A stretch of DNA of 59,981 bases from a virus (Duplodnaviria; Caudoviricetes): positions 1 to 59,981 of the IMG/VR virus record IMGVR_UViG_3300032293_001960. One strand, 5' to 3'. The notes under the pieces were generated by a model. The model saw only the letters and a list, made by a program, of their open reading frames with translations. It was not told where the DNA came from and did not search any database. Position 1 is the first letter of the stretch. Each line of letters opens with the position of its first letter. Shown one piece after another: positions 5,518 through 54,027 of the stretch. A program made the position numbers and the translations under genes.

Positions 5518-6838
5518 TTGACGTACTCCCCGGCCTGAAGGCGGGAGATTCTCGGATCTTCAGGAGCCCTCATGGTGCTTCCCCTCCCCGAGCTTCTCTA
5601 GCGCCCAGCCCGGACGCTGAATGGATTCCACGCTTGAGCACCACCTGAGCGGCGGCTACATCCCGATCGGCGGTGTAGCCGCACTCCGGGCAGTCGTGGA
5701 CACGAACACTGAGATCCTTCGGCACTGCCGCCCCGCACTCGGGGCATTGCTGGCTGGTGCCCCTGGCATCCACCTTCTTCACGCAGACGCCACGCTTCAG
5801 CCCGACCCATTGCAGGATCGAGATGAACTGGCTCCAGCCTGCATCGAGCACCTGCTTCGACAGGTTGCCGCGTGCCATCCCTGCGATGTTCAGCGCCTCA
5901 ACCACGATGGTGTCGGCGGTGTCGCAGAGCCGGTGGGCTTCCTTGAAGTGGAAGTCCTTGCGGACATTGCTCAGGCGTTCGTGTTGCCTGGCGAGACGGT
6001 GCATGGCGATGCGCCAGCGGCTGCTCCCCTTGCGCTTCTTCGATGCCGAACGGTTCAGCTCTTTCAGCCTGTGTTGTCCGGTCTCGAAGAAACGGGGATT
6101 GGCCACCAACTCACCGGCACTGGTCGCCAGGAAGCTTTTGATGCCGACATCGACGCCGATCGCATTGCCGTGCGGCTGCGGTTCGGGGATGTCGATGTCC
6201 TGCTCAAGCGAGAGCATGGCGTAGAAGCCAGACGCTCGCTTGACGATCCGCACCTGCTTGACGATGGCGCCATCAGGCAGCGGACGAGACTGGCGTAGCT
6301 TCACCCAGCCGATCTTCGGCAGGCTGATGCGGCCAGCAGATAACACCTGCTTGTTCAACTGTGGGAACAGGAAAGACCTGATCCGTTTCTTGAACCTTGG
6401 GAAGCCCAGTCCTCGCTCCCATGTCGCCACAAAGGATGCCTCCAGGTTGCGGAGGACTTGCTGGAGAACATGGGTGTGAGGTTCCTTCAGCCATGGCCGT
6501 GATGGCTTGGCGGCTGCCAATGCAGCGCACTGCTTGGCGAAGGTGGGCTTGGGTGCATCCGGCGGAATGATGTACTCCTGCCGGATCGAGCAGGCGTTGA
6601 CGGGTGATTTCTTCGCACGAGCGAAGTCCCGTCGCTCAGCCAGGGCGTAGTTCCAGACGCCTTTGCAGATATCCAGCCAGCGGTCGAAAGTCTCGACCTG
6701 GGCGGGCGTCGGCAGCAGCTTGAACTCGTAGGTCTGGTTAAGCATGACTAAATGCTAGCCGTTTTCTTCAGGCTGTGCTGGACAAGGCTTTGAGGGAAAG
6801 CCGCCCTGAAGGGCGGGGCTTGAGACCCAGTTCCAAGG
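5518..6838 (-). mobile_element. IS1341-type (tnpB-only) IS200/IS605 element
   Basis: left end CCTTGGAACTGGG with hairpin GCCGCCC-TGAA-GGGCGG after 5' flank TGAC; right-end hairpin ending in TCAA. Confidence 0.85.
5570..6745 (-). CDS. tnpB: RNA-guided endonuclease TnpB
   Basis: HTH N-terminus; RuvC GVDVG / VVEAL / DRDVAAA; CPECG..CPECG zinc ribbon. Confidence 0.95.
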   Translation of the reverse strand: MLNQTYEFKLLPTPAQVETFDRWLDICKGVWNYALAERRDFARAKKSPVNACSIRQEYIIPPDAPKPTFAKQCAALAAAKPSRPWLKEPHTHVLQQVLRNLEASFVATWERGLGFPRFKKRIRSFLFPQLNKQVLSAGRISLPKIGWVKLRQSRPLPDGAIVKQVRIVKRASGFYAMLSLEQDIDIPEPQPHGNAIGVDVGIKSFLATSAGELVANPRFFETGQHRLKELNRSASKKRKGSSRWRIAMHRLARQHERLSNVRKDFHFKEAHRLCDTADTIVVEALNIAGMARGNLSKQVLDAGWSQFISILQWVGLKRGVCVKKVDARGTSQQCPECGAAVPKDLSVRVHDCPECGYTADRDVAAAQVVLKRGIHSASGLGAREARGGEAP

Positions 6839-9912: not shown

Positions 9913-12573
9913 TCAGTCCTCCCAAAGGTCATCGTCCGCATCAAAGATCGGCTCGTACGCGCGCGCGCGTGATATCTGTGTGGGGATGTCCTTTGCTCCT
10001 TCCTCCCTGGGATCGCCCTCGGGGACTGGAAAAAAGGAAAGGACATCAGAACCGGAATCGGTTGCTTGTCCCTTGCTTTTCGGAACTGGTGATTCTTCCA
10101 AAAAGGAAAGGACATCCTCTTCAGGGATGCTGGCGATGTCCTTTCCTTTTTCCTGTTCTTGCAACCGTTCTCGGGGGGCAAGGAGCAAAGGACACTCATA
10201 CATGGACAACGCACGCGCGCGCGAGGGGGGAACCGTATAGGAAGGCACCGGTTTATCGCTCCCGGGGACGATCCGCTTCTTACCCTCCACCAGCACCCCA
10301 GAGGCCACCCAGCGATCCAGCCAGCGCCTTACGGTCTTGATCGAGGGTGTCTTCCTCGCCTGGCCGGTCATCTCCTCTCCCAGGCGCTCCCAGACATCTT
10401 TGGCGGTCAACCTGTCCGGGCCCTCCCCTGACTCCCGAGCACGCTGCACCGCGTCTCTGACGATCCGCAGGGCCATGGTGTGTGGCTCCGGATCTCCCTG
10501 CCCGTTGTCCTCCCTCCTCTCGGTCGGCGTCCAGTCCCACACGGAGTACGCGAAATCAGCGTCCCGCTCCACCACCAGCAGGTCCCCTTCCCGGCCCAGG
10601 CGGCTTTTCTTGATCTGGATCAGCCTGCAGCTAGAGGGCACCAGGCGCCGCTCACGGAGCCTTTCACGTTCATCGTCTGTGGGCTTGCGCAGATGCCACT
10701 GTTCGTCCACTGCAGCCGTGAGATAGCGGGTGCCCCGCGCTTCGCCCGCCGCGTTGTCGTGATGAATCCAGATGATGCTGGTGGCTGGAAATCCATCAGG
10801 AGCTCCGTTCTGTTCGCTGTAGTAGTAAAAAGGCGATGCAAAGGCTTTATCTTTTTCTTCAACCTGCATCTTTGTACTGCAGGAGCCAATGCTGTCTACA
10901 ACCACAAGAGCGGGTCTGTGCTCTTTAATCCATTCACCAAATTCATGTGTATGGTTTAGCTGAAAACCACGCTTGACAATGAACCACTCGGAATCCTTGT
11001 CGAGATCAATACCGTTATCTTCGCAATCCTGTAGTAACTTCGCAGGGCTCTGATCATTTTGGATCCAAAGCACGGGACCCTGTTTCACAGGAAGATCAAT
11101 TCCACGAATCCTCATCGGGCTGCCACGACCTATGGCAGTTGCCAGGCCCATACAGGCTGAAGTCTTCCCGAGGCCGCCAGCAGCGTGCACCATGACTTGT
11201 GTAGGCTTTTGAAGAAGATTAGGAATGACATAATCCATCTTTTCAATATGCCGCCACCAACCAATCTTTACATTTAAGGCTCTTGTAGATTCGTAATACC
11301 TATACTCGTCCATTGCAGCTAGGCACTGTTGACCAGTAAGGCGACGACCTGTTTCTGCTGCTAAGCCGGCCATGCGTCCGATTCGCAAAGCGGGGTTGAG
11401 TTCTTCATCATGAATGCGTATCAAGGCCTCGTGAAACTCCCTTTCGTTCATAACGACGCGGGGAGTATCTACAGATTTTACGACTTGTAATTTAGCATCT
11501 TCAGGGTAGGAGTACCCAATAGCAGACGCTAATTCCGCAACAATAGTCTCTAACTCAGCCCCCCGAGGACGTGGGGCGTGTTTCTTGCCTGACCTTACTT
11601 TATGCATAAAGTCCAATACATCACCATGCACACCACATGCTTTGCAGTCCCAGCATCCAGTATCTGTCGAGTATTGGAAGGATGTACCGCTCTTACCACC
11701 GTGCCAAGGGCAGCCTGACACCATTTGTGGCTTTGCTCCAGAGCGCAGCTTCCAACCGTATTCCGTAAATGTGTGGTCGTTAAAGACCAGTTCTTCTAGT
11801 CGTGGGAGGAGCTTCGCCTGAACTTCAGGGCGAAAAAACCAACCTCTGATTTGTTTCTCTGGGATTAAGGTATCAAGGCCGACATCAGACGCTAGCTCTT
11901 CTAATTCATCAGCACTGAGGAACTGAACAGGTTTTCGATAGGGTCTGACAGCATCTAGTAGCCACCCCGGGGCCGTGGCTGGCATCCCATCATTGTAGCT
12001 AAGCCATTTGTAGATCATCCCATCTGGGTGTCTGGAGCCTGGAAGCACGCTTTGGCAGGCGTTAAAGCGGATGACTAATTCTTGATAGTCACCTTCAGTT
12101 TGTATCTCAGGGACAGTGTCTATCCATTCGTTTTCATCAGAATCGGGATTAAAGCTGTAGTATAGTTTCTTAATAGATTTCATTTCATAGACTAACTGAG
12201 AAGGCATACGATAGACAATCTGTCTTCTTTCAAGTCTTCCAGATGTCCAGCTCATAGTTTTTTCTTGTCCATACGGTTCGTATTCATGTTTTGCTGCTTG
12301 TTTGTATTTGGCATCCGCATCAGGCCCGTCAATATCGACAGCGATCAGACCATCAGAGAGGGAACCAGTAACAACACCAATACCGTTGTACGCTGATTTA
12401 GTCTTATACAGTTGGATTGTCTGTTCTTTCGTGAAAGGCTGCGTCGTCCAGTCTTTGACGTAAGTATCTTTACCTGCTACGGGTATGAAGGCCCAACCAC
12501 TTGGGAAGACGTTGCCTTCGAGTTGACGAATTGCTTTTGCATTTAGAAGTGCCGGCCTGCCTGAAGAGGACAT
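9913..12573 (-). CDS. bifunctional primase-polymerase / Zn finger / AAA-type helicase
   Basis: N-terminal Prim-Pol (IAVDID, SVLPGSRHP); CPWH...CKAC Zn finger; Walker A AAGGLGKT; VVVDS; IHH; C-terminal wHTH-like region. Confidence 0.85.
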   Translation of the reverse strand: MSSSGRPALLNAKAIRQLEGNVFPSGWAFIPVAGKDTYVKDWTTQPFTKEQTIQLYKTKSAYNGIGVVTGSLSDGLIAVDIDGPDADAKYKQAAKHEYEPYGQEKTMSWTSGRLERRQIVYRMPSQLVYEMKSIKKLYYSFNPDSDENEWIDTVPEIQTEGDYQELVIRFNACQSVLPGSRHPDGMIYKWLSYNDGMPATAPGWLLDAVRPYRKPVQFLSADELEELASDVGLDTLIPEKQIRGWFFRPEVQAKLLPRLEELVFNDHTFTEYGWKLRSGAKPQMVSGCPWHGGKSGTSFQYSTDTGCWDCKACGVHGDVLDFMHKVRSGKKHAPRPRGAELETIVAELASAIGYSYPEDAKLQVVKSVDTPRVVMNEREFHEALIRIHDEELNPALRIGRMAGLAAETGRRLTGQQCLAAMDEYRYYESTRALNVKIGWWRHIEKMDYVIPNLLQKPTQVMVHAAGGLGKTSACMGLATAIGRGSPMRIRGIDLPVKQGPVLWIQNDQSPAKLLQDCEDNGIDLDKDSEWFIVKRGFQLNHTHEFGEWIKEHRPALVVVDSIGSCSTKMQVEEKDKAFASPFYYYSEQNGAPDGFPATSIIWIHHDNAAGEARGTRYLTAAVDEQWHLRKPTDDERERLRERRLVPSSCRLIQIKKSRLGREGDLLVVERDADFAYSVWDWTPTERREDNGQGDPEPHTMALRIVRDAVQRARESGEGPDRLTAKDVWERLGEEMTGQARKTPSIKTVRRWLDRWVASGVLVEGKKRIVPGSDKPVPSYTVPPSRARALSMYECPLLLAPRERLQEQEKGKDIASIPEEDVLSFLEESPVPKSKGQATDSGSDVLSFFPVPEGDPREEGAKDIPTQISRARAYEPIFDADDDLWED
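9958..10223. repeat. ~265-bp imperfect palindrome with AAAGGACATC-type repeats; candidate replication origin
   Basis: four nested inverted pairs all centred at ~10091. Confidence 0.75.
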
Positions 12574-20637: not shown

Positions 20638-21020
20638 TTCTCGATGTACTGGCGGATCACGGTGATCGGAGCCCCCCCGCAAGAACCGGCGAAGTAGCTT
20701 GGACTCCATAGGTGTTCTGCGTGGGGGCGCAGCGGGAACTCCTTGCGAAGCATCCGGCTGGATACGCCCTTCATGGCGTTCACGATCCCGGCCACCGATT
20801 GCTTGGGCGGGTACTCGACCAAGAGGTGAACGTGATCGGGCTCACCGTTCAACTCCAGCAACACGCAGTCCAGCTTCTGGGCAACACCCTGGCAGACCTC
20901 CCGCATCCGGTCCAGCTCCGCATCACCTAAGACCTTGCGCCGGTATTTGATCGTGAAGACCAAGTGGACCACAAGCCGAGAAACGCTGTGCCGGCCTCGC
21001 CGAAGCTTGTCTAGTTGCAT
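20619..21020 (-). CDS. tnpA: IS200/IS605 Y1 HUH transposase TnpA
   Basis: HLVFTIKYRR, DHVHLL, WSPSYF, YIENQ. Confidence 0.95.
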   Translation of the reverse strand: MQLDKLRRGRHSVSRLVVHLVFTIKYRRKVLGDAELDRMREVCQGVAQKLDCVLLELNGEPDHVHLLVEYPPKQSVAGIVNAMKGVSSRMLRKEFPLRPHAEHLWSPSYFAGSCGGAPITVIRQYIENQGKSP

Positions 21021-21048
21021 GGCAAACCCAAGTTGGTATGCTGTTGGG

Positions 21049-22332
21049 ATGAAGGCACGTTACCGCTTCCGCCTGTATCCGCATCCGCACCAGCGCATCG
21101 CGTTGGCGCAGCTGTTCGGCTGCACCCGGCGGGTGTGGAACGATGCCCTGGCTCACTGCCAAGGGCTGCGGGCAGCGGGCAAGAAAACACCTTCTGGCTA
21201 CGCCCTGCGTAACTGGATGTCCGCCGCCAAAGCAGGTGTCCCTTGGCTCGCAGCGGCACCCTCAACGCCGCTGTGCGAATCGGTGCTGGACTTGGCGGTT
21301 GCCTACAAGAACTTCTGGGCCAGCTGCACTGGTAAGCGCAAGGGGCCGAAGGTGCGGGCGCCTCGCTTCAAGTCGAAGCGAGACAGCCGCCAGGCCGCTC
21401 GGTTCACGAAGGTGGCCTTTCGCTGCCATGAACGCACCCTGCAGCTCCAGAAAATCGGCAAGGTGCCCATCGAGTGGAGCCGGGATCTACCGGCGGAGCC
21501 CAGCTCTTGCACGGTGATCCGTGATGCCTCGGGCCGCTACTTCGCCTCCTTTGTAGTGGAAGTGGCTGGCGCCAACTCCTGCGCCATTCGCCCCCAGGAA
21601 GGGCGAGCCATCGGCATTGACTTGGGCTTGGCATCCCTCGCCATCACCTCTGACGGCGAAAAGGTGCCCCTGCCAAAGCACTTCGATGCGGCGCGGAAGC
21701 GGCTGCGTCACCTGCAGCGGCAGGCGGCGAGGAAACGCCGTTGTGTCTCCAAGGGCACGAAGGCATCGAATCGCCTCAAGGCCGTGGATCGCAAGATCGC
21801 CAGGCTTCACGCCAGAGTTGCAGACCAGAGAACCAATGGGCTGCACCAACTGACGAGCCGCCTGGTGCGCGATCACGACTTCATCGCCATCGAGGATCTC
21901 AATGTGTCCGCGATGCTGAAGGCGCCGAAGCCGGTGCTGGATGAAGCGATGGCTCGCTGGCTGCCCAATGGCCGCGCCTCAAAGCGTAGCCTGGCCCGTG
22001 GCATCTCCGATGCTGGCTGGGCCACCTTCCGCACCATGCTGGAGCAGAAGGCCGACCGTGCCGGTAAACGGGTGGTGGCGGTGAACCCCGCCTACACCAG
22101 CCAGCGGTGCAACCACTGCGGCCACACCGAAGCCGCCAACCGCCCGAAGCAGGACACCTTCCGGTGCCAGAGCTGCGGGCACACCGAATATGCCGACATC
22201 AACGCGGCACGAAACATCTTGGAGGCCGGACTGGCCTTGTCTGGACGTGGAGCCTTGCGTAATTCCGAGCCTCGCTTGGTTGCTGGCTGCGAAGCGTCAA
22301 CCCACCTGAAGGTGATGGCTCATGCAGCCTGA
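21049..22332 (+). CDS. tnpB: RNA-guided endonuclease TnpB
   Basis: MKARYRFRLYP start; RuvC GIDLG / IEDL / ADINAA; zinc ribbon. Confidence 0.95.
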   Translation: MKARYRFRLYPHPHQRIALAQLFGCTRRVWNDALAHCQGLRAAGKKTPSGYALRNWMSAAKAGVPWLAAAPSTPLCESVLDLAVAYKNFWASCTGKRKGPKVRAPRFKSKRDSRQAARFTKVAFRCHERTLQLQKIGKVPIEWSRDLPAEPSSCTVIRDASGRYFASFVVEVAGANSCAIRPQEGRAIGIDLGLASLAITSDGEKVPLPKHFDAARKRLRHLQRQAARKRRCVSKGTKASNRLKAVDRKIARLHARVADQRTNGLHQLTSRLVRDHDFIAIEDLNVSAMLKAPKPVLDEAMARWLPNGRASKRSLARGISDAGWATFRTMLEQKADRAGKRVVAVNPAYTSQRCNHCGHTEAANRPKQDTFRCQSCGHTEYADINAARNILEAGLALSGRGALRNSEPRLVAGCEASTHLKVMAHAA

Positions 22333-28044: not shown

Positions 28045-28208
28045 TCTTTTGCCTATCGTTGTTGACTGGTTGTGCTTCTAGTTATCGCTCATTTCCGCAA
28101 ACCGAAGCACGACAGTTTTACTATTCTATTGCAGAGTCTCATTCGTGCACAGACCCTGTAATGCCTAGTCTAGTATCAGTTCCACCATTTAGTTATTATG
28201 CGAAATAG
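28026..28208 (+). CDS. small lipoprotein
   Basis: signal peptide with lipobox LLTGC. Confidence 0.45.
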   Translation: MRYSVLIFCLSLLTGCASSYRSFPQTEARQFYYSIAESHSCTDPVMPSLVSVPPFSYYAK

Positions 28209-28455
28209 CAACAGCAGCTTGATAAGCACTCTTATCAGTATAAGAAACCCATGGCGTTTCAGTCCTGGTGACACGGCTTATGTTCGTGGTTGGTCTCAGG
28301 ACTATCCAGTAACGATCGAGGCCCCAGCAGAGTTCGGCGAAGGCTTACGCCGCGTCACGGTCCCGCACTACCACTGCCGTGACCACCTGGGCGGCACCTG
28401 GCTGCTGAGCCAGCTGCATCTGTCCAGATCACCAATTTCGGAGCGCAAGCGATGA
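28198..28455 (+). CDS. hypothetical protein
   Basis: PWRFSPGDTAYV...PHYHCRD...W..SQLHLS; ATGA overlap with the next gene. Confidence 0.55.
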   Translation: MRNSNSSLISTLISIRNPWRFSPGDTAYVRGWSQDYPVTIEAPAEFGEGLRRVTVPHYHCRDHLGGTWLLSQLHLSRSPISERKR

Positions 28456-29168
28456 CAGCTAACCGGCCACTGCGCGGCGGCTCGTGGATCCACCTCCCGC
28501 ACGACTGCCGCGCCGCCTTCCGGCTCAGCGGCTACCCGGACAGCACCGGCTCCAACCTCGGCCTGCGTCCCTGCTGTATCCTTCCCCTCCCCCATTCATC
28601 TCTCAATCCCTCAGAAACCATGACGACCTCCAATCACACTATTTCCGCCTCTGCTCTCAACCTGCCCATGGTGTCCATCGCCCCAGGGCGCTTCATGATG
28701 GGATCCAATTCACCGTCGGCTTTCTCTGATGAGAAGCCGGTCCATGAGGTGATTATCGACAAGGGCTTCGAGATGGCGGAGACTCCGACCACCCAAGCCC
28801 AGTGGCGATGGGTCGCCGAGAACCTGCCCAAGGTCGAGCGCGATCTCGATCCTGATCCTTCGCGCTTCAAGGGCGACAGCCGCCCGGTCGAGCGCATCTC
28901 CTGGTATGACGCCATGGAATTCTGTGCCCGCCTCAGCCGGGCTACAGGCAAGACATACACCCTTCCCACCGAGGAACAGTGGGAGTACGCCTGCCGCGCA
29001 GGCACCACCACTGAATTCGCTTTCGGGGACACCCTCGATGAGTCCCAGGCACGCTTCAACGCAGACTCCACCTGCGATGTCAAGCAGTACAAAGCCAACG
29101 CCTGGGGCCTCTACGACATGCACGGGCAGGTCTTCGAGTGGTGCCTTAACGAGTACCAACCCTACTGA
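28452..29168 (+). CDS. FGE-sulfatase / C-type-lectin-fold scaffold lacking its C-terminal variable region, with an N-terminal VR-like module (second start at 28620)
   Basis: FMMGS, EKPVHEV, TPTTQAQW, PVERISW, LPTEEQWEYACRAG, NAWGLYDMHGQVFEWC then stop; RGGSW..CRAAFR..NLGLR at the N-terminus. Confidence 0.88.
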   Translation: MTANRPLRGGSWIHLPHDCRAAFRLSGYPDSTGSNLGLRPCCILPLPHSSLNPSETMTTSNHTISASALNLPMVSIAPGRFMMGSNSPSAFSDEKPVHEVIIDKGFEMAETPTTQAQWRWVAENLPKVERDLDPDPSRFKGDSRPVERISWYDAMEFCARLSRATGKTYTLPTEEQWEYACRAGTTTEFAFGDTLDESQARFNADSTCDVKQYKANAWGLYDMHGQVFEWCLNEYQPY

Positions 29169-29178
29169 TTCCCCTCCT

Positions 29179-29463
29179 ATGCACTCTGATCTGCGGGGCG
29201 GCTCCTGGGACAGCAACCCCGGGGACTGCCGCTCGGCCTTCCGCGACCTCAACCAGCCCGTCTATGCCAACGGCAACGTCGGCTTCCGTGTGGTGTGCCT
29301 CCCCGGGGAGGTAGCACCACCCCGGATGCTGCTGCGCGGCGGCTCTTGGGTCAACGACCCCAGGCTCTGTCGCTCGGCCTGGGGCGGCCACGCCCTGCCC
29401 GGCAATGCCAGCCTCAACTCCGGGTTTCGTGTGGTGTGCCTCCCCGGGGAGGTGACACCATGA
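29179..29463 (+). CDS. mini-gene with two tandem CLec variable-region modules
   Basis: MHSD-LRGGSW..CRSA..GFRVVCLP twice. Confidence 0.7.
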   Translation: MHSDLRGGSWDSNPGDCRSAFRDLNQPVYANGNVGFRVVCLPGEVAPPRMLLRGGSWVNDPRLCRSAWGGHALPGNASLNSGFRVVCLPGEVTP

Positions 29464-29750
29464 CAACTCGTGACACCCTTCGGCTGTTTCGCGTGCGCGG
29501 CGGCTCCTGGGACGGCTACCCCAGGTACTGCCGCTCGGCCTACAGCAACCACGCCCGGCCCGGCGATGCCAACGACGACGTCGGGTTTCGTGTGGTGTGC
29601 CTCCCCGGGGAGGTAGCACCACCCCGGATGCTGCTGCGCGGCGGCTCCTGGGACATTGGTAACTACCGGTTCTGCCGCTCGGCCTTCCGCTACCACTTCC
29701 AGCCCGACGTTGCCAACGACTTCATCGGGTTTCGTGTGGTGTGCCTCCCT
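29191..29750 (+). repeat. array of four DGR variable-region-like repeats (29191, 29332, 29493, 29634)
   Basis: 141-bp spacing within pairs; invariant framework, variation at codon positions 1-2. Confidence 0.92.
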
Positions 29751-29804
29751 GCCCCCGAGATCGTAGCCGCTGCTGCCCTCCGCGCCCTGGAGGACCATGG
29801 CTGA
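29460..29804 (+). CDS. mini-gene with two tandem CLec variable-region modules
   Basis: ATGA-coupled start after GGAGGT; MTTRDTLRLFR-VRGGSW..GFRVVCLP twice. Confidence 0.75.
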   Translation: MTTRDTLRLFRVRGGSWDGYPRYCRSAYSNHARPGDANDDVGFRVVCLPGEVAPPRMLLRGGSWDIGNYRFCRSAFRYHFQPDVANDFIGFRVVCLPAPEIVAAAALRALEDHG

Positions 29805-29960
29805 CCCAGCTTCACTAGAGCAACTGAGCAGGGCCGCTGAATCAGCAGCGGAGAGATATGTCGTAACTGACGCAAGTTCGTATCAGTTGCTGAACATTAT
29901 CAGCTGTCTTGAGTCCGCGGCTGCCATATTACGGAGGAAAGCATTCAGGAGACAGTTATT

Positions 29961-30185
29961 ATGACTGAACAACAGCAGCATCCCAGCAGCCCGCCTCAAG
30001 AGCTGCGAGACAAATGGAGAGAAGCGCAAACGGCAGAAGAACTCATATCGCAAATAGAGAATGAGGCTCTTCGAGTGCTTGACTCGAAGATGCCTGTTAC
30101 TCGTCCTCCTTGGATTATGACAAAAGACCTTTACGACAAAGCCGCTGCTGCCTTCCGCGCCCTGGAGGCCCTTCCCGATGACTGA
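29961..30185 (+). CDS. hypothetical protein
   Basis: QHPSSPPQEL...RALEALPDD; AGGAG RBS. Confidence 0.6.
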   Translation: MTEQQQHPSSPPQELRDKWREAQTAEELISQIENEALRVLDSKMPVTRPPWIMTKDLYDKAAAAFRALEALPDD

Positions 30186-38298: not shown

Positions 38299-38718
38299 TT
38301 AGGGCGGGGAGGAATGGCCTTCAGGACGATCCTGCTCAGCGATGTAGCGCCTGAGCGTTTCGATGGTGGCGCCGCCAGCACTTGAAGCGAAGTAGCTCGG
38401 ACTCCAAAGGTGCTCGCCGTGCGGACGCAAAGGGAACTCCTTGCGCAGCATCCGGCTCGACACTCCCTTGAGGGCGTTGACCAGGGCCGACACCGAGAGC
38501 GTTGGCGGGTACTCGACCAGCAGATGCACATGGTCGGCTTCGCCGTTGAACTCCAGCAACTGAAAGCCCATCTTTTCGGCGACACCGAGGCAGACCGCCT
38601 CCATTCGCTCAAGGTGCTCAGCCGTCAGCACGGCTCGCCTGTACTTGACGACAAAGACCAAATGGACGACCAGCCTGGAAACGCTGTGCCTGCCTCGCCT
38701 AAGCGGTTGCTGTGCCAT
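38299..38718 (-). CDS. tnpA: IS200/IS605 transposase TnpA
   Basis: HLVFVVKYRR, DHVHLL, WSPSYF, YIAEQ. Confidence 0.95.
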   Translation of the reverse strand: MAQQPLRRGRHSVSRLVVHLVFVVKYRRAVLTAEHLERMEAVCLGVAEKMGFQLLEFNGEADHVHLLVEYPPTLSVSALVNALKGVSSRMLRKEFPLRPHGEHLWSPSYFASSAGGATIETLRRYIAEQDRPEGHSSPP

Positions 38719-38747
38719 TGCACCCCAAGTCTGGTATGGTGATTGGT

Positions 38748-39950
38748 ATGCAACTACGGTACCGCTACCGCTGCTACCCCAGCCCCGCCCAACAGCAGGC
38801 CCTGTCCCGCTCGTTTGGTTGTGCTCGGGTTGTTTGGAATGACGCCCTGGCCCTGAGCAACAAGCTCTATGCCGAGGGGGAAAAGTATCCGGGCGGTTCG
38901 GCGCTGATGGCACTGGTCATCACCAAAGCCAAGCGGACGCCGGAGCGGCAGTGGCTGACCGAAGCATCCCATTCGATGCTTCAGCAGTCAGTGCGTGACC
39001 TGGACCGTGCCTTTCGCAACTGGTGGGGTTCACTCACCGGCAAGCACAAAGGCAAGGCCAGAGCACCGCGTTTCAAGAAGCGGAGCAACGACCAGAGCAT
39101 CCGTATCTGCGGCAAGCAGTTCCGCGTCACCGAGGGCGGCGTCCGCTTCCCCAAGGTGGGTGATCTGCCTCTGGTTTGGTCACGACCGCTGCCAGCGGTG
39201 CCTTCCTCCTGTACCATCATCAAGGATGCGGCTGGTCGGTACTTCGCCAGCTTTGTTGTGGAAGTGGATCGGCCCCAACTGGAGCCCAACGGCAACACCG
39301 TGGGAATCGACCTGGGCCTGACGACCTTCGCCACGCTCAGCACTGGCGAGAAAGTGGATGCGCCTAAGCCCCTGCGTTCCGCCTCCAAGCGGCTACGCAA
39401 GCTGCAACGCAACCTCAGCCGCAAGACCAAAGGCAGCAACCGCCGCAACCGGGCGCGGGTGCAAGTGGCACGGCTTCATGCCCGCATCGCTGACACCCGT
39501 AAAGATTTCCTCGACAAGCTCAGCACTCGCATCATCCGTGAGAACCAAACGGTGGTGCTTGAGGATCTGAAAGTCTCGGGGATGATCCGCAACCGCAAGC
39601 TGGCCCGTTCCATTGCGGATGCAGGCTGGCGTCAGTTCCGCCTGCTGCTGGAATCCAAGGCCCTGATGTATGGCCGCACGGTCAACATCATCAGCACCTG
39701 GGAGCCAACTTCTCAGCGGTGCTCAGCCTGCGGAGAACTAGGCGGCAAGAAGCCGCTCAACATCAGGGCGTGGACCTGTCTGCACTGCGGTGCCGAACAT
39801 GACAGGGACATCAACGCCGCCAATAACATCGCCGCCGCCGGACAGGTGGAGGCACAAAACGGACGTGGAGCCAGGCGTAAGACGGGCTTGCCCGCTGCAG
39901 GCTGTGAAGCGTCAACCCAACAGAGGAGCAAGCAGTTATGCCTGCTCTGA
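38748..39950 (+). CDS. tnpB: RNA-guided endonuclease TnpB
   Basis: RuvC GIDLG / LEDL / DRDINAA; zinc ribbon. Confidence 0.95.
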   Translation: MQLRYRYRCYPSPAQQQALSRSFGCARVVWNDALALSNKLYAEGEKYPGGSALMALVITKAKRTPERQWLTEASHSMLQQSVRDLDRAFRNWWGSLTGKHKGKARAPRFKKRSNDQSIRICGKQFRVTEGGVRFPKVGDLPLVWSRPLPAVPSSCTIIKDAAGRYFASFVVEVDRPQLEPNGNTVGIDLGLTTFATLSTGEKVDAPKPLRSASKRLRKLQRNLSRKTKGSNRRNRARVQVARLHARIADTRKDFLDKLSTRIIRENQTVVLEDLKVSGMIRNRKLARSIADAGWRQFRLLLESKALMYGRTVNIISTWEPTSQRCSACGELGGKKPLNIRAWTCLHCGAEHDRDINAANNIAAAGQVEAQNGRGARRKTGLPAAGCEASTQQRSKQLCLL

Positions 39951-47548: not shown

Positions 47549-50500
47549 GTGTCTGAGTATCAAATAAAAGTCACAGCGGACACCAAAGCCGCTTTAGATG
47601 AATTAAGAAAACTGTCTAAACAGATAGAAGATATAAACAAGCCAAAGATACAGCCTATTGTAGACTCTAATAGTTTAGCTTCTTTAACCAGAGGTTTACA
47701 AACTGAGCTACGGCGCTTAAAAGAGCAGCAAGTCACCGTTGACATCAATAGCACTTCGTTCAAACAGTTAGGCGCACAAATTCAAGATACTCAAAATAGG
47801 CTTAGGGGTCTTGAGCAAAAGAAGCTGCTTATTAACGCAGACCCCTCTAGCATCGTTGCGTTAAAAGCTAAACTCGGAGACTTACAGCAACAACTTGAGA
47901 GAGTTAGTACAAAATCTGAAGCGTTTAAGCAACTTACTGGTGAGATCAAAAAAACTGAAGCTGCCTTAAGCGGAGTAGGTAACGCGGGCGGAGGAGGCGC
48001 AATGCGTCTTGTGGAGAACTTTGCAAAAGTTGGTCTCGCCCTGTACGGTGTACAACAGGCTGTGCGTCTCACGGGCGCTGCTTTCAAAGGTTTTTTTGAT
48101 GAAACAATAGGAAGGGAAGTAAAGTTCAGAGAAACAATACTTAAAACCCAGACCACTCTGGCTTCTACCAACAAAGTCTTTCGAAATGGTTCAGAAATTA
48201 CAGATCCCTATCAAAAGATTGTAGCTCTTACAGGACAAGTTGAGGAGCGTGTCGATAGCATCCGTAAGCGCTCTATTGAACTCGCGGGGGTCACGTCTAA
48301 CGATGTAGTTGAAGTTTTTGGAATTGTTTCCTCTCAAATCGGGATGATTGGTGGGGGCTTAAAAGACGCGGAAGATTTAGCAATTAGCTTCTCCGCTGCT
48401 TTAGGAACCTTTGGTCTCCCACTACATCAGGCTCGCCAAGAAATTGGCTCCATCATGCGGGGAGATATAACACAGGATTCTTACCTCGCAAAGGCCCTTG
48501 GAATTACTCCAAAAGATATAGAAAAAGCCAAAACACAAGCCGGTGGTGTCGTAGCTTTCATTCAAAAGAAACTAGAGGCTGCTGTCGCTGGCCAAAACAT
48601 CTCCGCGCAGAGCTTCTCTGGCGTGATAAGCAATCTTAAGGATTTACAAGAACTCTTTGGACAAGAATTTGGTAAAGGTTTACTCGACCCCATGCTGGGC
48701 GGTCTACGAACTGTTTTCAACTATCTCAATAGTATTCGAGATACCTTATTTGCAATAGGTAGAGAAGCGGGAGAGGGTATTGGTAAACTCTTCGGCAATA
48801 ATTTATCAGCGATCGTCGGAGGATCAGATCTATTCCAAGGCATGGGCGCCAGTGCCGCCGAGGGCGCTAAGCAGTTTGTAACCGTTATTCAACAGGCTTT
48901 TGCCTCATTACAGGCTGATGCTAATGAGTTTATAGCACCAGTTCGCAACATCCTAGAAGAGCTTGTTAAAAGTGCTGGTGTGCTACTCAGCGCATTCTTA
49001 GAACTAGGCAAGGCCCTGGCCTCTATCGGTGTTGAATCTCTAAAATCGCTTGCTTCTCTTTTTTCAAACCTCAGTGAAGTTGTAACAGTTATTGCTACAG
49101 GCCTTGCTGGTTTGCTGAAAGTTTTGACAGCACTTGTGCAGCTTCCACCTGTGATGGTGCTTGCTCAGTTAGCTGCTCAAGTAGCAATACTAAACAGGCT
49201 GGGGATCACCCAGATGTTCGTTAATGCTATTGGACCCATCAGAAATATGAGTACGGCTGTGGTGGGCCTTAGTCAAAATCTGATTAGAAGTGGAGTCAGC
49301 ATGAAGACTTTCACAAGTGCAGCTGCAGGCATGGGTGCTGCAGTATCTGCAGCAGTTGTATCCATGGGGCGAGCGGTTGCCAGTTTTATGAAAGCTAATG
49401 CGTACATGTTAATAATTCAAGTTACTCTAGCCGTTGTTTTAGATCTTTTCGGGCGTTTCCAACGTCAGCAGGAGGAACTTGCACGCACCCAGAAAGCAGA
49501 AGCGGCATTGCAAGAGCTGAACACGAAGTTTCGTGATGTAGGTGATAGCGCCACCGAGGCCGAAAAAGCGCAGAAGGCCTACCTCGAATCTTTAGTTGGC
49601 AATGAGTTCGACACTCTTACCAATAAGTTAAATGAATTGGACGAAAAACTTCGGCGACAAGCTGGGCCCAATATCTTCGAACAATTAGGCAATAGTGTAA
49701 AATGGTTTGCTGGAGAGCTAAGTAAGTTAGTACGTCAATTTGGCCCATTACTTTCCATTCTTACAGGTGCTGCATTAGGTGGAGGGATGGCTGGAATTAT
49801 TTCTAGTGTTAACTCAAAAACAGGTGGTAAAGCTCAGGATAACAAGATCTTTGGTTTTGATACCCGCAATATCACCGATCCCATGGGTCGTCACAGTAAA
49901 ACTGGGTGGTATCAGCAAGACATACTGCGTCAGCGACAGGAAACGGCTGCCCAAAGAGAAAAATTTAAGCTCAATGATAAAGCTGGCGGCACTGGTTCAG
50001 ATGACATCCGCCTTCAGGCTGAAGAAAACCGCGCCAATATCGAACGACAGAAGCAGCTTGAAAGTGATCTAGCTGAGCGTCGTCGCACCTTCGAGGAAGA
50101 GCTAGCAAATTTCCGCAAGTCCCAGGAGGACGCCGTCTTTGAGCGGCGACAGTCCCTAGCCCAGAAGGAAATCGACATCTTCCGTGCTGCTGGTGAGCTT
50201 CGAATCGCTCAGATGGAGCAGGCCAACGCGAAGATGATCGAAGGCGAGCAGGGTGCTTCCCGGGCGGCTATGGAAGCGCTCAACACCTACATCACCGAGC
50301 GCGAAAAGGGGGAACTGAACATCGAAGCGCAAAAGCAAGAGATAGCACAAGAAATGATAAAGATGGAAAAAACTCTGGCCGACTACAGGCTGGAGCAAGA
50401 GAAGCGAATTGCGGAGATACGTCGAAAGGCGGATGAGTACACCATGCTGGCAATTAAGGGTCAGCAAGAGATAGGTGCTGGTATGAGTGGAAGCGCTACC

Positions 50501-53500
50501 CCTGGTGGCGCAACCGGCCTTTCTGGTGGTAAAGCCTTCGATACCGGCCTCCGCACGGGCCCCGCGCACCTCATAGGAGGAAGTTCGGAGTATCACCAAG
50601 ATATGGCATTTGGTGCTGGCGTACCCCTTAAAGAGCAGGTTGCTCTTGTACGTCAAATGGCACAAGAATACGATAAAATAGGGAAAGCGATGGTGTTAAG
50701 TAATAATGCTGTCCACGGAAGAGTATTCCCTGTAAATGGTTCCGAGAGTGAACAAACTAAATGGGTAACAGATGCTCGTGCTGCTCATCGTTCTCGTAAC
50801 GGGGGAACCGGAAGAGATGCAATCGACTTTTACACACCTTCCAAACAAGTAGCTCTCGAAAGAGGCGGTAAAGCTGCATTAGCGCACAGTTCAGCCGTAG
50901 AAAGCACGCCCATGCTTGCTCCTGTAATACCAGGAGCGCAGAGAGAGTATTTCAGTGGTGGTCGCAATGGAGCTGGTATGCGACTTACACGCGATGGCCA
51001 GCAGCTCTTCACGCTCATCCATGGGAGAACTGACCGAGCTTTACCGCAAAACGGAGCCATCCCTGTAGCCTCTGCCCCTACAGCTTCTCGTCCTTCTAGC
51101 AGCGGTATCACCCCCGAGCTACGAGCCGCGCTCGACACCATCCGAATGGCTGAAGGCACTTGGCTTGGTGGATCTGATAAGGGCTACCAGACCATGTTTG
51201 GTGGCGGCACCTTCTCCAGTTACGCCCGCCATCCAGATAAGGTCATCCGCTCTGGAGGTTACGCCAGCGCCGCAGCCGGTGCCTATCAATTCATGCCCAA
51301 CACCTGGGCTTCCCTTGGTCAAAAAGACTTCAGCCCAGAAAGTCAAGACAAGGCCGCAATCGAACTATTAAAAAAACGGGGTGTCTACGATGCACTCGCT
51401 GCAGGTAAGTTCACACCTGAAGTGTCAGCAAAGATGGCCCCCGAATGGGCATCATTCCCAACAAAGGCTGGGGTTAGTTTTTACGGTCAGCCCGTTAAGA
51501 AGTTCTCAGAACTACAAAAGTTCTATCAACAGCGACTGGGAGAAAACCAAAAGACTCAACCATTCCGCACACTCCCCGAGTACGGCTCTACTCTCGATAA
51601 CCCGCAGCACACGCAGAAAATCGGAGATCTTGAGCGGCAACTCATGGCAAGTGACCAGAAGCTGGCAACGCTCCGCACCTCTTTAACTGAGCTCAGCAAC
51701 AGCAAAAACTTTGATGCTATTGGCAAAGCATTTGAAGATGCCCTTCCTGGCAAGGAAGATTTTGAAGCAATGGAAACGCAGTTGTATGGCACGATGCAAA
51801 CCATTGCCCAACTTGGAGAGACTGCAGGCGAAGCCTTTGATCCTGAAGCAGCGAAGTTAATAGTCGAACATACTTCTAATCAAATGGTATTGGAGCGTGA
51901 GCTTGGACAGACAAAAGCGCATATCGCACAACTAACTAACCTGTCAGATGCAGAGCGACTGAAGATAAATGAAATGCTAAATCAAACCGCAGAGAAGTAT
52001 AACCAGAATCAAACCCGCACCTTAGAACTCAAAAAGCAGCAACTTGCAGCAGAACGAGGTCTGGCCTATATCCAAGAGGCCCAGCAGCGAACTCGTGAAA
52101 TGAATGAACAGACAGAGATCATACGTAATACTTCTCAAATGAAATTTAGCGGGATGCGGCAAGAGGATATAGATTACGAACTAGACGTCGCAGCTATTCG
52201 ACGCAACTACGATAAACAATTCAAACAGCTACTTACGGCCAATCCTGTAGCCAACAAAATCAGTGAAACTTTCATAGCACCTGTGGCCGAGCCGGTCGAT
52301 GCTGGAATGTTTACCACACCCTTGCCTAAACCAGTGGCGCCGCCCGCCCCCGCAGTGCCTGTAGCCACGCCTGCTAACAACATCGTTCCAACAAGCGGTA
52401 AGCCCCCTACCACTGCCACCACACCCGCTCCCCCAAGCACGACTCCGATCTCCGCACTCGTGGCCGGCGCTAAAACTTCCCTCTTGGATACACAAGCTGC
52501 GGCGTTAGCACTTTCTGCTACAGCTACTAACACCCTTGCTCCTGCACTCTCTGATGTCTTCACTTCTATTGCTGCAAGTGAACTTCAGCTTCCTGAGGGA
52601 TTCAAAGCAATATCCGCAGGTTTTCTTGAATCTACAAACTCCTTTATTGATGCATCTGGTGGATTAAGCGCCAAACTTATCGACGATACGAACAAACAAA
52701 TAGAGGCACGAGGTCGGCTGCGTGATGCTATCAATGAATCCAACGACCCGATCCGCAACCAGATCGGTCAGTGGCGCCGCGAGCTAGCCGATACTGAAGG
52801 CATGGTGGCGAGCCTTGGAGGCACCATCCAATCGGAGCTCTCTGGGGCCATGAGCACCTCCTTGATCGGCCTGGTCAATGGCACGAATACAGCCAAGGAA
52901 GCGTTCAGCTCAATGCTGCAAAGCATCGGTAAAACAATGGTGGACACCGCCACTCAGATGCTGTCCAAGTCACTGGTGAGTGGCCTGATGGGTGGTGGCG
53001 CTGCTGGTGGTGGCATCCTGGGCAGCATCTTCGGTCTCAGTGGAGGCGGTGGTGGCGGTCTGGGGGGCCTCTTGGGAGGCCTCTTCGGCGCCCGCGCTGC
53101 TGGTGGTCACGCTGATGCCAATCGCCCCCTCCTGATCGGCGAGCGTGGCCCCGAGATCTTCGTACCCGATACCGGGGGCCAGATCGTTCCAAATCACCGC
53201 GCCCAGGCCTACGCAGCGATGTCGCGCTCTATGGACGACTCGGCTTTCCCTAAGACACAAAAGGGCGGCACGAATTTACGACAGCAAGAAGATCCCTTTG
53301 CAGCTAATAAAGAAGTGCTCGGCTCAATTGCTGCTGCGTCCCAGAAGCGCAGCACTGAGAAATCTATTGCCAGCATTGGCGGCACCTCCGAGATCAAATA
53401 CTCCCGCGTCAACTCCGGTGACCTACCCTTCATCACCGAGGACGACGCCCTGCGGATCGCTAAACAAGCTGAAATGAATGGAGCTAAGATGGGTCAACAG

Positions 53501-53557
53501 CGCACCCTTGCGGCCCTGCGCAACAACCCGAGCACGAGGAGAGGCATAGGTATCTAA
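47549..53557 (+). CDS. tape measure protein with internal lambda-R-like muramidase domain
   Basis: 2002 aa, helical; LDTIRMAEGT..AAGAYQF..APEWASFP at ~51110-51540; C-terminal IGERGPEIFVP. Confidence 0.9.
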   Translation: MSEYQIKVTADTKAALDELRKLSKQIEDINKPKIQPIVDSNSLASLTRGLQTELRRLKEQQVTVDINSTSFKQLGAQIQDTQNRLRGLEQKKLLINADPSSIVALKAKLGDLQQQLERVSTKSEAFKQLTGEIKKTEAALSGVGNAGGGGAMRLVENFAKVGLALYGVQQAVRLTGAAFKGFFDETIGREVKFRETILKTQTTLASTNKVFRNGSEITDPYQKIVALTGQVEERVDSIRKRSIELAGVTSNDVVEVFGIVSSQIGMIGGGLKDAEDLAISFSAALGTFGLPLHQARQEIGSIMRGDITQDSYLAKALGITPKDIEKAKTQAGGVVAFIQKKLEAAVAGQNISAQSFSGVISNLKDLQELFGQEFGKGLLDPMLGGLRTVFNYLNSIRDTLFAIGREAGEGIGKLFGNNLSAIVGGSDLFQGMGASAAEGAKQFVTVIQQAFASLQADANEFIAPVRNILEELVKSAGVLLSAFLELGKALASIGVESLKSLASLFSNLSEVVTVIATGLAGLLKVLTALVQLPPVMVLAQLAAQVAILNRLGITQMFVNAIGPIRNMSTAVVGLSQNLIRSGVSMKTFTSAAAGMGAAVSAAVVSMGRAVASFMKANAYMLIIQVTLAVVLDLFGRFQRQQEELARTQKAEAALQELNTKFRDVGDSATEAEKAQKAYLESLVGNEFDTLTNKLNELDEKLRRQAGPNIFEQLGNSVKWFAGELSKLVRQFGPLLSILTGAALGGGMAGIISSVNSKTGGKAQDNKIFGFDTRNITDPMGRHSKTGWYQQDILRQRQETAAQREKFKLNDKAGGTGSDDIRLQAEENRANIERQKQLESDLAERRRTFEEELANFRKSQEDAVFERRQSLAQKEIDIFRAAGELRIAQMEQANAKMIEGEQGASRAAMEALNTYITEREKGELNIEAQKQEIAQEMIKMEKTLADYRLEQEKRIAEIRRKADEYTMLAIKGQQEIGAGMSGSATPGGATGLSGGKAFDTGLRTGPAHLIGGSSEYHQDMAFGAGVPLKEQVALVRQMAQEYDKIGKAMVLSNNAVHGRVFPVNGSESEQTKWVTDARAAHRSRNGGTGRDAIDFYTPSKQVALERGGKAALAHSSAVESTPMLAPVIPGAQREYFSGGRNGAGMRLTRDGQQLFTLIHGRTDRALPQNGAIPVASAPTASRPSSSGITPELRAALDTIRMAEGTWLGGSDKGYQTMFGGGTFSSYARHPDKVIRSGGYASAAAGAYQFMPNTWASLGQKDFSPESQDKAAIELLKKRGVYDALAAGKFTPEVSAKMAPEWASFPTKAGVSFYGQPVKKFSELQKFYQQRLGENQKTQPFRTLPEYGSTLDNPQHTQKIGDLERQLMASDQKLATLRTSLTELSNSKNFDAIGKAFEDALPGKEDFEAMETQLYGTMQTIAQLGETAGEAFDPEAAKLIVEHTSNQMVLERELGQTKAHIAQLTNLSDAERLKINEMLNQTAEKYNQNQTRTLELKKQQLAAERGLAYIQEAQQRTREMNEQTEIIRNTSQMKFSGMRQEDIDYELDVAAIRRNYDKQFKQLLTANPVANKISETFIAPVAEPVDAGMFTTPLPKPVAPPAPAVPVATPANNIVPTSGKPPTTATTPAPPSTTPISALVAGAKTSLLDTQAAALALSATATNTLAPALSDVFTSIAASELQLPEGFKAISAGFLESTNSFIDASGGLSAKLIDDTNKQIEARGRLRDAINESNDPIRNQIGQWRRELADTEGMVASLGGTIQSELSGAMSTSLIGLVNGTNTAKEAFSSMLQSIGKTMVDTATQMLSKSLVSGLMGGGAAGGGILGSIFGLSGGGGGGLGGLLGGLFGARAAGGHADANRPLLIGERGPEIFVPDTGGQIVPNHRAQAYAAMSRSMDDSAFPKTQKGGTNLRQQEDPFAANKEVLGSIAAASQKRSTEKSIASIGGTSEIKYSRVNSGDLPFITEDDALRIAKQAEMNGAKMGQQRTLAALRNNPSTRRGIGI

Positions 53558-54027
53558 TGCAAATAGCGATTGGTACTTACATTAACTTCCGACTGTTCAC
53601 AGGTGCGAATACAGGATACGCCTTTCAAAACTTTCACGCAGGAGCAACGCGTAGCTATGGCGGCGTCAGCTACATCTACGCAGGTTTTGGTTTTAGTGGC
53701 ACCAGTGTAGACCTACAAGGCAGTGCAATTGAGGCCCAGCTGGTTTTTGCTGTTAGCTCCCTGCTGATGACCTTTATCCAGCAGGCCGCAGACGAGCGTT
53801 GGATCCTCCGAGTGCGTACTGTTTGGCTGGACCCCGATACATTGGTGGAGACGAGCACCTATATGGAAGAGGTCTATCAAGTACACGCATTCCAGCATAA
53901 TGGTAGTCGGCTTAGCTTAAAGCTCGGTAGTCCTTTAGATGCTGTAGCGAGCCATGTTCCCAAGCGAACGCTACGTCAAGGGCTTGTAGGAGCTCTACCT
54001 TCTTCAGGGCAGATTAACTTCTCATGA
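53557..54027 (+). CDS. minor tail protein
   Basis: YAFQNF, LGSPLDAV..VPKR..LVGALP; after the TMP. Confidence 0.65.
   Translation: MQIAIGTYINFRLFTGANTGYAFQNFHAGATRSYGGVSYIYAGFGFSGTSVDLQGSAIEAQLVFAVSSLLMTFIQQAADERWILRVRTVWLDPDTLVETSTYMEEVYQVHAFQHNGSRLSLKLGSPLDAVASHVPKRTLRQGLVGALPSSGQINFS

Follow-up and report, generated by a model that had tools for sequence, protein, structure and literature searches.

Diversity-generating retroelements (DGRs) are described as self-contained cassettes whose targets lie on the same genome as the reverse transcriptase (RT) and the template repeat (TR). In canonical systems with targets of the FGE-type C-type lectin (CLec) fold, including those of Bordetella phage BPP-1 (Mtd), Treponema (TvpA) and cyanobacteria, the variable repeat (VR) departs from the TR at TR adenines, mostly within AAC-type codons. 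Action in trans is described, in the available portions of the literature, only within one genome or in an engineered donor–recipient assay; for BPP-1, DGR parts supplied on a donor plasmid home into the phage VR, in an engineered arrangement that employs the phage's own DGR parts (Guo 2011, PMC3240598). Remote targets, VRs that lie far from the RT and TR and are matched by identity at non-adenine sites, have also been recognized and, in passages of these reports, are found within the same cellular genome at the 3′ terminus of CLec genes (Vallota-Eastman 2020, PMC7517822; Dore 2024, PMC10907252). The present analysis concerns five VR-type modules (c1–c5) and an associated FGE/CLec scaffold at positions 28452–29804 of the IMG/VR virus record IMGVR_UViG_3300032293_001960, a linear sequence of 59,981 nt that was analysed in full (the window); its completeness is estimated at 86% and its last open reading frame (ORF) runs off the end. 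The locus is interpreted, on a balance that tips slightly in favour, as a group of remote DGR targets borne by a virus of freshwater picocyanobacteria; this phage encodes an integrase but, within the record, none of the DGR machinery, and would be served in trans by a DGR of its host.

Features in common with the canonical systems are variation at TR adenines and an FGE-type CLec fold resembling that of TvpA (2y3c), while related host loci possess the familiar combination of RT, bAvd, TR and targets. The phage locus differs in that the record lacks RT, Avd, TR and the host-type initiation of mutagenic homing (IMH) flank, in that no complete target gene is closed by a VR (the scaffold ORF ends before c2, and c1 is N-terminal), and in that there are five modules, tandem or permuted, located in separate coupled ORFs. 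Relative to the remote targets in the reported excerpts (PMC7517822, PMC10907252), the targets here are on a virus, with TR and RT in the host lineage, and the match at non-adenine sites is imperfect. Both scaffold and cassettes match phrog_18508, to which belong FGE proteins of Microcystis phages (annotated as 'kinase'), the scaffold being 45–47% identical to those of the Ma-LMM01/MaMV phages (including MaMV-DC) and 39% to that of Mic1. A literature search returned no paper on phage VR arrays that lack an RT, or on a CLec target that is split; supplementary tables could list such loci. Variable cassettes beside one constant expressed part are also a feature of silent-cassette antigenic variation (pilE/pilS, vlsE), and the phage locus resembles these systems in its row of cassettes but differs in having an RT-type adenine signature and start codons of its own.

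Adenine-directed variation and its template

A DNA profile of the module, run against both strands of the window, detects exactly five copies of ∼117 nt each, all on the plus strand. Cassettes c2 (29188–29304) and c3 (29329–29445) are located in ORF2 (29179–29463, 94 aa), and c4 (29490–29606) and c5 (29631–29750) in ORF3 (29460–29804, 114 aa); all four follow the pattern RGGSW..CRSA.R..GFRVV, and the corresponding profile copies (29190–29304, 29330–29445, 29494–29606, and 29632–29749) have E values of 1e-27 to 1e-30. The remaining copy, c1 (28470–28568; E 1.6e-4), is a diverged module. In the 24 codons from W to GFR, c2–c4 have 25 variable nucleotides, of which 11, 12, and 2 fall at codon positions 1, 2, and 3, respectively; 20 of the 23 at positions 1–2 show an adenine in at least one of c2–c5. 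Only 2/76 invariant columns are A in the cassettes.

Natural templates for these cassettes are found in Cyanobium-type genomes, in the locus L086 among others, and in lake-metagenome contigs. Cassettes c2–c4 align base for base with host TRs and VRs over 117 nt, and c2–c5, after removal of a 3-nt insertion (ATT) from c5, align gap-free with the TRs of L086, L080, L083, and L091–L093. Relative to the L086 TR, 59/104 adenine sites are changed in c2–c5 compared with 21/340 other sites (Fisher p 2e-27). By cassette, the changes amount to 13/26 adenine and 5/85 non-adenine sites in c2, 17/26 and 7/85 in c3, 14/26 and 3/85 in c4, the copy nearest to the TR, and 15/26 and 6/85 in c5. A template inferred by rule, blind, from c2–c5 agrees with natural TRs in 103 of 111 columns. 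Silent third positions in the cassettes differ from the TR at only 1–4 of 37, whereas the scaffold differs from its nearest homologues at ∼30% of synonymous sites, so the cassettes would have been written later than the split layout arose.

Change is thus almost, although imperfectly, confined to TR adenines. The 3–7 non-adenine mismatches per cassette (of 85) drop to about 1–5 if two TR-variant positions are allowed; two mismatch states common to the cassettes (AAT versus AAC, and ACC versus AAC) occur in the natural TRs of L083, L095, and L100. Cassette c1 has 22 non-adenine mismatches to the TR. Comparison of sequences supports c2–c5 as adenine-mutagenised copies of a DGR TR.

The original prediction, made from the window alone, fared well in these respects: its nucleotide counts (25 variable, 23 at positions 1–2, 20 with A) are reproduced exactly, a template near the one it proposed exists in nature, and that template stands, as it had supposed, elsewhere and beside a DGR RT, together with bAvd. 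A template differing from the cassettes at adenines only, which it had also anticipated, was not found among the natural TRs. There is support for its core inference, namely that a DGR wrote the cassettes and that the template for this lay outside the phage, in a host lineage that can now be identified.

DGRs of the host lineage

When the conserved cassette 3′ end was scanned against one genome per prokaryote species, 12 loci were obtained, 10 of them in metagenome-assembled genomes (MAGs) titled Cyanobium sp., Synechococcaceae or Cyanobacteriota. The other two (L082 and L087) have identical VR-bearing contig ends of the Cyanobium type in MAGs titled Actinomycetota and Gemmatimonadetes, and these contigs are probably mis-binned. 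Most of the 12 loci are VRs at the ends of FGE genes; L080, L086, and L090 are instead adenine-rich copies translating as RGGSWNNNPRNCRSANRNHNQPDNANN.IGFRVVCLPQH, and L083 contains a fourth such copy. The DGR at L086 comprises an 844-aa FGE target, bAvd (PF22296, E 2e-14), an RT (RVT_1, E 1e-18), the TR and a 322-aa FGE target, and its own VRs are changed at 17/26 and 20/26 adenine sites but at only 0/86 and 1/86 non-adenine sites. The TR pattern was detected in 6/301 sampled host-family genomes and in three metagenome contigs, each with an RT motif; every TR found is located on a cellular MAG contig or on a short metagenome contig beside an RT.

DGRs that combine RT, bAvd and FGE targets are present in unicellular Cyanobium-type picocyanobacteria (L086, L080, L083, and L094–L100, from genomes G035, G036, G037, G092, G131, G159, G160, and G297), whereas, according to passages of PMC10907252, the DGR RTs of cyanobacteria come almost exclusively from multicellular species. 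Across different Cyanobium-type MAGs (L079–L092), the host VRs share a conserved non-coding 3′ flank of at least ∼90 nt (CAGGGCCCTTCCCTYAAC..TAATCYCTYAATCCCTCAACACTGGCTGTT.., with GGCTGTT repeats), possibly the target-recognition element of this DGR clade. The flank of the TR differs from that of the VRs and is strongly structured (fold z −2.4); folding of the host VR flanks as DNA predicted no significant hairpin.

The truncated scaffold and its layouts

The scaffold is encoded by ORF1 (28452–29168, 238 aa), which consists of c1 at its N-terminus (RGGSWIHLPHDCRAAFR..LGLRPCC, of the type RGGSW..CRAAFR..LGLRPCC), a linker (28569–28619) and the VR-less scaffold proper (28620–29165, 182 codons from MTTSNH..), with no stop before the scaffold. 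Within the linker is a remnant (28575–28612, ..TCTCTCAATCCCTC..) of the non-coding sequence conserved 3′ of host VRs, in which the host stop-codon position reads TCA according to a by-eye comparison with 12 host VR flanks. ORF1 terminates at EWCLNEYQPY, and its TGA stop and a 10-nt spacer (29166–29178) separate it from ORF2, which is in the +1 frame. Fusion of scaffold and cassettes across this junction (..CAA CCC TAC TGA..) would need a +1 shift; no classical slippery site is apparent there by eye. ATGA start/stop overlaps are found at 28452 and 29460, the latter joining ORF2 to ORF3, whose ATG is preceded by GGAGG at a distance of 7 nt. The original prediction had placed the end of the FGE/CLec gene before the RGGSW..GFR segment and had recognized the two ATGA-coupled starts, both correctly; five free-standing cassettes in three ORFs were also described, and the five modules and three ORFs stand, but c1 is not free-standing because it is in frame with the scaffold in ORF1.

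All three ORFs exceed the 23.3-bit cut-off of the Pfam FGE-sulfatase family (PF03781; 140 bits and E 1.4e-40 for ORF1, 39.7 bits for ORF2, and 41.4 bits for ORF3). Since profile positions 5–194 of 255 are supplied by the scaffold and 214–254 by the cassette ORFs (217–254 in ORF2), encoded apart, no one polypeptide contains the complete domain in its usual order. AlphaFold2 (AF2) modelling of ORF1 yields a confident FGE-type scaffold (mean predicted local distance difference test, pLDDT, 78.7), and Foldseek relates the modelled scaffold to FGE, pFGE, PvdO, and the DGR protein TvpA (2y3c) at E values of 1e-8 to 1e-7.

The closest homologues, the phage loci L001–L003, encode scaffolds 93–94% identical to that of the window, with the same stop, the same MHSDL start of the next ORF and an in-frame N-terminal cassette. 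The ratio of non-synonymous to synonymous divergence (dN/dS) relative to these loci is 0.07–0.08 at dS 0.38–0.43 which, together with conservation of the stop, shows that the truncated scaffold is kept by purifying selection and indicates that it is functional. Sequencing error and recent pseudogene formation can be ruled out as the cause of the split, given the same stop and MHSDL start in L001–L003 at dS ∼0.4 and dN/dS 0.08. The phages themselves are not whole-genome relatives of the window, as what tblastx finds in common with G001, the record of L001, amounts to the FGE module and a small number of further segments; G001 is therefore uninformative on the missing part of the window, and the scaffold/cassette module appears to move horizontally between otherwise largely unrelated phages.

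Layouts were surveyed in the window and 78 other phage loci, some of which represent the same phage from different samples, using a protein regular expression that may miss cassettes. Ordinary fused genes account for 43 of the 79, and in a further 14 the fusion occurs only after at least one wrong-frame cassette. The scaffold ORF stops before the cassettes in nine (the window, L001–L003, L009, L015, L016, L035, and L058), five have N-terminal in-frame cassettes only, and in eight no cassette was seen. The expectation that related phages keep the split layout consequently applies to the closest three contigs, but not to most of the more distant homologues, the 43 fused genes. In L058, which belongs to a different scaffold lineage, GGGAGG is located ∼7 nt before a start that overlaps the stop, as in the window, and in L015 an ATG lies 2 nt past the scaffold stop with GAGGG before it; GGAGG followed by an ATG or GTG overlapping the previous stop is seen in the window, L001, and L058. 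The L058 junction, GGGAGG-CAAAATC-(A/G)TGA, recurs behind the scaffold and behind blocks of cassettes (584–601, 1014–1030, and 1294–1310), where an A-AAA-T run with an upstream Shine-Dalgarno-like element could, judged by eye only, promote a −1 slip fusing scaffold and cassettes.

A second group of phages (L004, L005, L010, L012–L014, L018, L020, L022, L024, L029, L060, and L073; ∼10570–10860 in most) encodes a scaffold, one wrong-frame cassette read as a Ser/Pro/Thr/Ala-rich linker, and, at the terminus, a cassette that is in frame and ends in GFRVCCLPQD*. Cassettes of this type resemble another host TR type (L098/L099, GFRVCCLPQ), and a pairing of phage VR type with host TR type is seen for both the GFRVVCLP and GFRVCCLP types.

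With ORF3 as the query, 92 matches at E ≤ 1e-5 were obtained among 173 candidates from 5.8 billion proteins, and all 22 short metagenome proteins examined consist solely of two to four tandem modules. One protein unites the MHSDL start of ORF2 and the tail of ORF3 in a single two-cassette ORF, and in another, P0005, a leader of the ORF1 type (MTADRPL) is fused to a cassette resembling c3; such chimeras indicate that cassettes are gained, lost and exchanged. The same query recovered only nine distant loci from the phage collection. The split layout is thus of some age and under selection, and split or N-terminally permuted forms recur in other lineages.

How the missing part of the fold is supplied can be viewed in two competing ways, by trans complementation of the scaffold or by circular permutation in cis. 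A complex model of scaffold residues 57–238 with a 45-residue c4 peptide reached an ipSAE of 0.94, compared with 0.36 for the best of three controls; the same mark was reached by 58/80 solved complexes and 2/110 mismatched pairs. Model runs, based on custom alignments, agree in at least 97% of contacts, with a partner pLDDT of 91. Because scaffold and peptide together make up a fold for which many structures have been solved, and the score may reflect likeness to these, this result denotes compatibility rather than binding, and completion of the scaffold in trans by cassette peptides is possible. In the permuted alternative, ORF1 by itself would constitute a complete CLec domain, and c2–c5, instead of binding in trans, would be a store of modules exchanged with c1 through homologous recombination. 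An in-frame N-terminal cassette precedes a C-truncated scaffold in 10/79 loci (the window, L001–L003, L006, L019, L021, L059, L061, and L066), five of them having no downstream cassette. Cassette c1 is, moreover, hypervariable between the window, L001/L002, and L003, differing between L001 and L003 despite nearly identical scaffolds, the composition of P0005 is as expected from exchange, and AF2 places the ..LGLRPC end of c1 at a pLDDT of ∼70–84. The same model, however, leaves residues 1–22, including RGGSW, below 50, and the N-terminal cassette of the permuted form in L019 is likewise only partly placed. The split scaffolds of L015 and L058 have no N-terminal cassette in the upstream reading frame, and the cassettes possess Shine-Dalgarno sequences and start codons of their own. 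Circular permutation with exchange is regarded as a rather unlikely account of the locus, although the best placed of the alternatives.

Diversification of the cassette array

The units formed by c2 and c4, each with its linker, are duplicates: changes between them affect 14/26 TR-adenine sites and 4/85 of the other sites in the cassette, but 0/41 sites in the linker (p 1e-9). As ordinary divergence would not spare the linker, this distribution points to adenine-specific rewriting after duplication, in the context of the array. The array itself appears to be specific to the phage. Cassette DNA was detected in 19/301 host-family genomes, always as approximately one cassette or less (∼50–120 nt), and no match extended across a cassette linker in any of the 301; the linker word GTGTGCCTCCCCGGGGAGGT occurs in no other IMG/VR contig and is unique to this record, and a DNA search of 50,697 phage records with the array produced no match. 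Duplication inside a phage-specific array was thus succeeded by diversification.

Whether it continues was approached through 16 sequencing runs, all of them Logan assembled contigs and none RNA, of which X1–X4 were compared at 85% likeness (X2 and X4 being lake-water metagenomes). Contigs from X1–X4 cover the window's own form without differences, and the array is broken into short unitigs. Depth figures for the c3 and c4 unitigs are below those of the flanks, and many other contigs, from host VRs and other phages for example, align on the cassettes. Contigs give no within-population frequencies at adenine sites, so these data were used neither for nor against activity. Pairs of near-identical phages provided no clean comparison, as L018/L024 and others differ strongly outside the gene and L018 is the same as L020. 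Diversification may still be going on, but the 3–7 non-adenine mismatches in each cassette and the lack of the host-type 3′ flank weaken the case for it.

The cassettes might alternatively be fossils, captured after earlier diversification in a host target or by a phage DGR since lost, and now inert, with their ORFs remaining open since NNC codons rarely give rise to stops. Shifted by one base, NNC becomes NCN, which is never a stop codon, so that no selection is needed to explain why wrong-frame readings in L004 and L006 stay open over long stretches. Relics of this kind would also be in keeping with the non-adenine substitutions and the indel in the cassettes, the missing host-type IMH flank, the strong decay of c1 with its 22 non-adenine mismatches, and the broken c2 homologue in L001–L003. 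An inert array is difficult to reconcile with adenine-specific divergence after duplication beside unchanged linkers, or with silent positions so much closer to the TR than scaffold synonymous sites are to their homologues. Shine-Dalgarno sequences with overlapping or closely following start/stop junctions in three scaffold lineages, and absence of the array from the 301 sampled host genomes, likewise speak against it, and the fossil explanation is considered unlikely.

DGR machinery in phages

Searches of the 86%-complete phage record for RT (PF00078), bAvd (PF22296) and the host DGR RT protein produced no match, and nhmmer of the window disclosed no sixth, TR-like copy, in agreement with the original view that neither RT nor TR is present in the window. 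The DGR RT and TR that would ordinarily be expected in the same genome as the VR are thus missing from the phage record. RVT_1 was found in 0/34 virus records with related FGE loci, 14 of which are at least 90% complete; the same search identified an RT in 4/5 TR-bearing host genomes, and is therefore able to detect enzymes of this kind. Among the 2.9 million contigs of IMG/VR, none matches the TR pattern exactly.

These results bear on the proposal that the phage carries an ordinary DGR, with RT, Avd, and TR in the missing ∼14% of its genome and the cassettes as its own remote targets. A linear record that is 86% complete, with its last ORF off the end, leaves room for such an element, and the exact protein of ORF3 is also recorded on a 65,973-nt contig. 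Set against this are the empty TR and RVT_1 searches of phage sequences and the confinement of all TRs to cellular MAG contigs or short metagenome contigs beside an RT, which together render an ordinary phage DGR improbable. Generation of the NNC pattern by tandem duplication, codon bias and positive selection, with no retroelement, can be dismissed almost entirely: scaffold third codon positions are also C-rich (89/182), but the columns that vary are those at which a natural TR, found independently, has adenines, 23/25 of the variable columns in c2–c4 lie at codon positions 1–2, and the linkers are unchanged.

Proposed action in trans

The favoured interpretation, that phage-borne targets are served by a host DGR, can be set out as follows. 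Cassettes c2–c5 would have been written by adenine-specific mutagenic retrohoming from a Cyanobium-type TR with bAvd and RT, a cassette-plus-linker unit having first been duplicated in the phage array, after which its copies diverged where the TR has adenines. With the phage DNA inside a DGR-positive host, most easily as a prophage, the host complex of RT, Avd and TR RNA would make mutagenised cDNA, which would replace phage cassettes by way of their common 5′ (GCTGCTGCGCGGCGGC..) and 3′ (..GGGTTTCGTGTGGTGTGCCTCCCC) homology. Less certainly, the cassettes may be translated from their own coupled starts, and one module at a time (c1 in cis, c2–c5 in trans) may supply the missing core strands and the binding loop, thereby conferring several specificities. 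The chances that the phage DNA is, or was until recently, rewritten in trans by a host DGR are judged about even. A bolder version, in which a temperate cyanophage parasitises the DGR of its host by means of an expandable VR array without RT or TR, whose coupled peptides plug singly into a common scaffold to give a naturally split, combinatorial binding protein that might mimic or blunt the DGR-diversified sensors of the host, is speculative and probably incorrect.

A palindromic element at the cassette 3′ ends may be relevant to both homing and translation. The 14-nt perfect palindrome CCTCCCCGGGGAGG (29298–29311), at the 3′ end of c2, forms the core of an imperfect hairpin (∼29290–29320) with a 4-nt loop; the element recurs after c3 (29439–29452) and c4 (29600–29613) and contains the GGAGG that serves as a Shine-Dalgarno sequence. 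The hairpins after c2, c3, and c4 are GC-rich with the loop CCGG (fold z −2.4, +0.3, and −1.1, respectively) and could function in translational coupling, as a DGR-type target hairpin, or both. The BPP-1 target is defined, according to the portion of that report available, by the IMH and a GC-rich hairpin 3′ of the VR (PMC3240598); a GC-rich hairpin, its loop 4 nt long, also terminates the window cassettes, but its perfect core stem is short.

Several observations weigh against the favoured interpretation. The hairpin has CCGG in its loop, where GRNA has been reported for the DGR targets of phages, and the cassettes are without the host VR 3′ flank (CAGGGCCCTTCCC.. and ∼90 conserved nt) common to all host targets. 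Even the best TR leaves 3–7 of 85 non-adenine sites mismatched per cassette, where host VRs have 0–1, and c5 has an indel. In L001–L003, which have nine cassettes each, the counterpart of c2 is broken and profile scores of the cassettes are lower, which has the appearance of decay. AF2 leaves the RGGSW half of N-terminal cassettes without confident placement, few alignment rows covering that part. The RT and TR could lie in the part missing from the 86%-complete record, and the sequencing runs, being assembled contigs, yielded no read-level evidence of present variation.

If the interpretation is correct, hypermutation machinery can be shared or exploited across the boundary between virus and host, and matching of VRs to TRs would provide a sequence-based host link for uncultured cyanophages. 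The split multi-cassette layout, if functional, would represent a natural fragment-complementation design for a binding protein.

Genome context

The window encodes a DNA polymerase, primase, terminase, portal, protease and major capsid protein. A tyrosine-integrase-like gene (1782–2831, plus strand) matches phrog_1 (E 5.5e-15) and scores 26.5 bits with Pfam Phage_integrase, just below the 27.1 cut-off; because of its presence the phage may be temperate. The portal protein is closest to that of Synechococcus phage S-CBS4 (40% identity), and a search of the five TR-bearing host genomes with it found no match. The major capsid protein has a single 43%-identical match (L122, G149:C10:90887-91783) among 401 sampled host-family genomes, which may represent a related prophage or a binned phage contig; the link to a prophage or host through the portal and capsid searches is weak.

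The FGE/cassette locus is situated within a string of small, same-strand non-structural ORFs upstream of the terminase gene, confirming its earlier assignment to the non-structural accessory genes. Immediately upstream is a small ORF (28198–28455, plus strand) encoding 85 aa of no recognized family, whose stop overlaps the start of ORF1 (ATGA), and the same coupled string continues with a 55-aa ORF (29797–29964, plus strand), whose start, preceded by GGAGG, overlaps the end of ORF3. Elsewhere in the window are three genes for IS605-type OrfB/TnpB proteins (phrog_506; 5570–6745, minus strand; 20935–22332 and 38712–39950, plus strand), an unusually high number for a 60-kb phage; the one scanned in Pfam possesses HTH_OrfB_IS605, OrfB_IS605, and Cas12f1-like TNB domains. 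Two giant plus-strand ORFs, 47549–53557 (2002 aa) and 54024–59981 (at least 1986 aa, off the record end), have no Pfam match above cut-off and presumably encode tail or fibre proteins. A 32-nt direct repeat (94% identity) is located at the 3′ ends of ORF3 (29765–29796) and of the small ORF at 29961–30185 (30140–30171), where it codes for AAAA(L/F)RALE and ends in GGAGG ahead of the next start.

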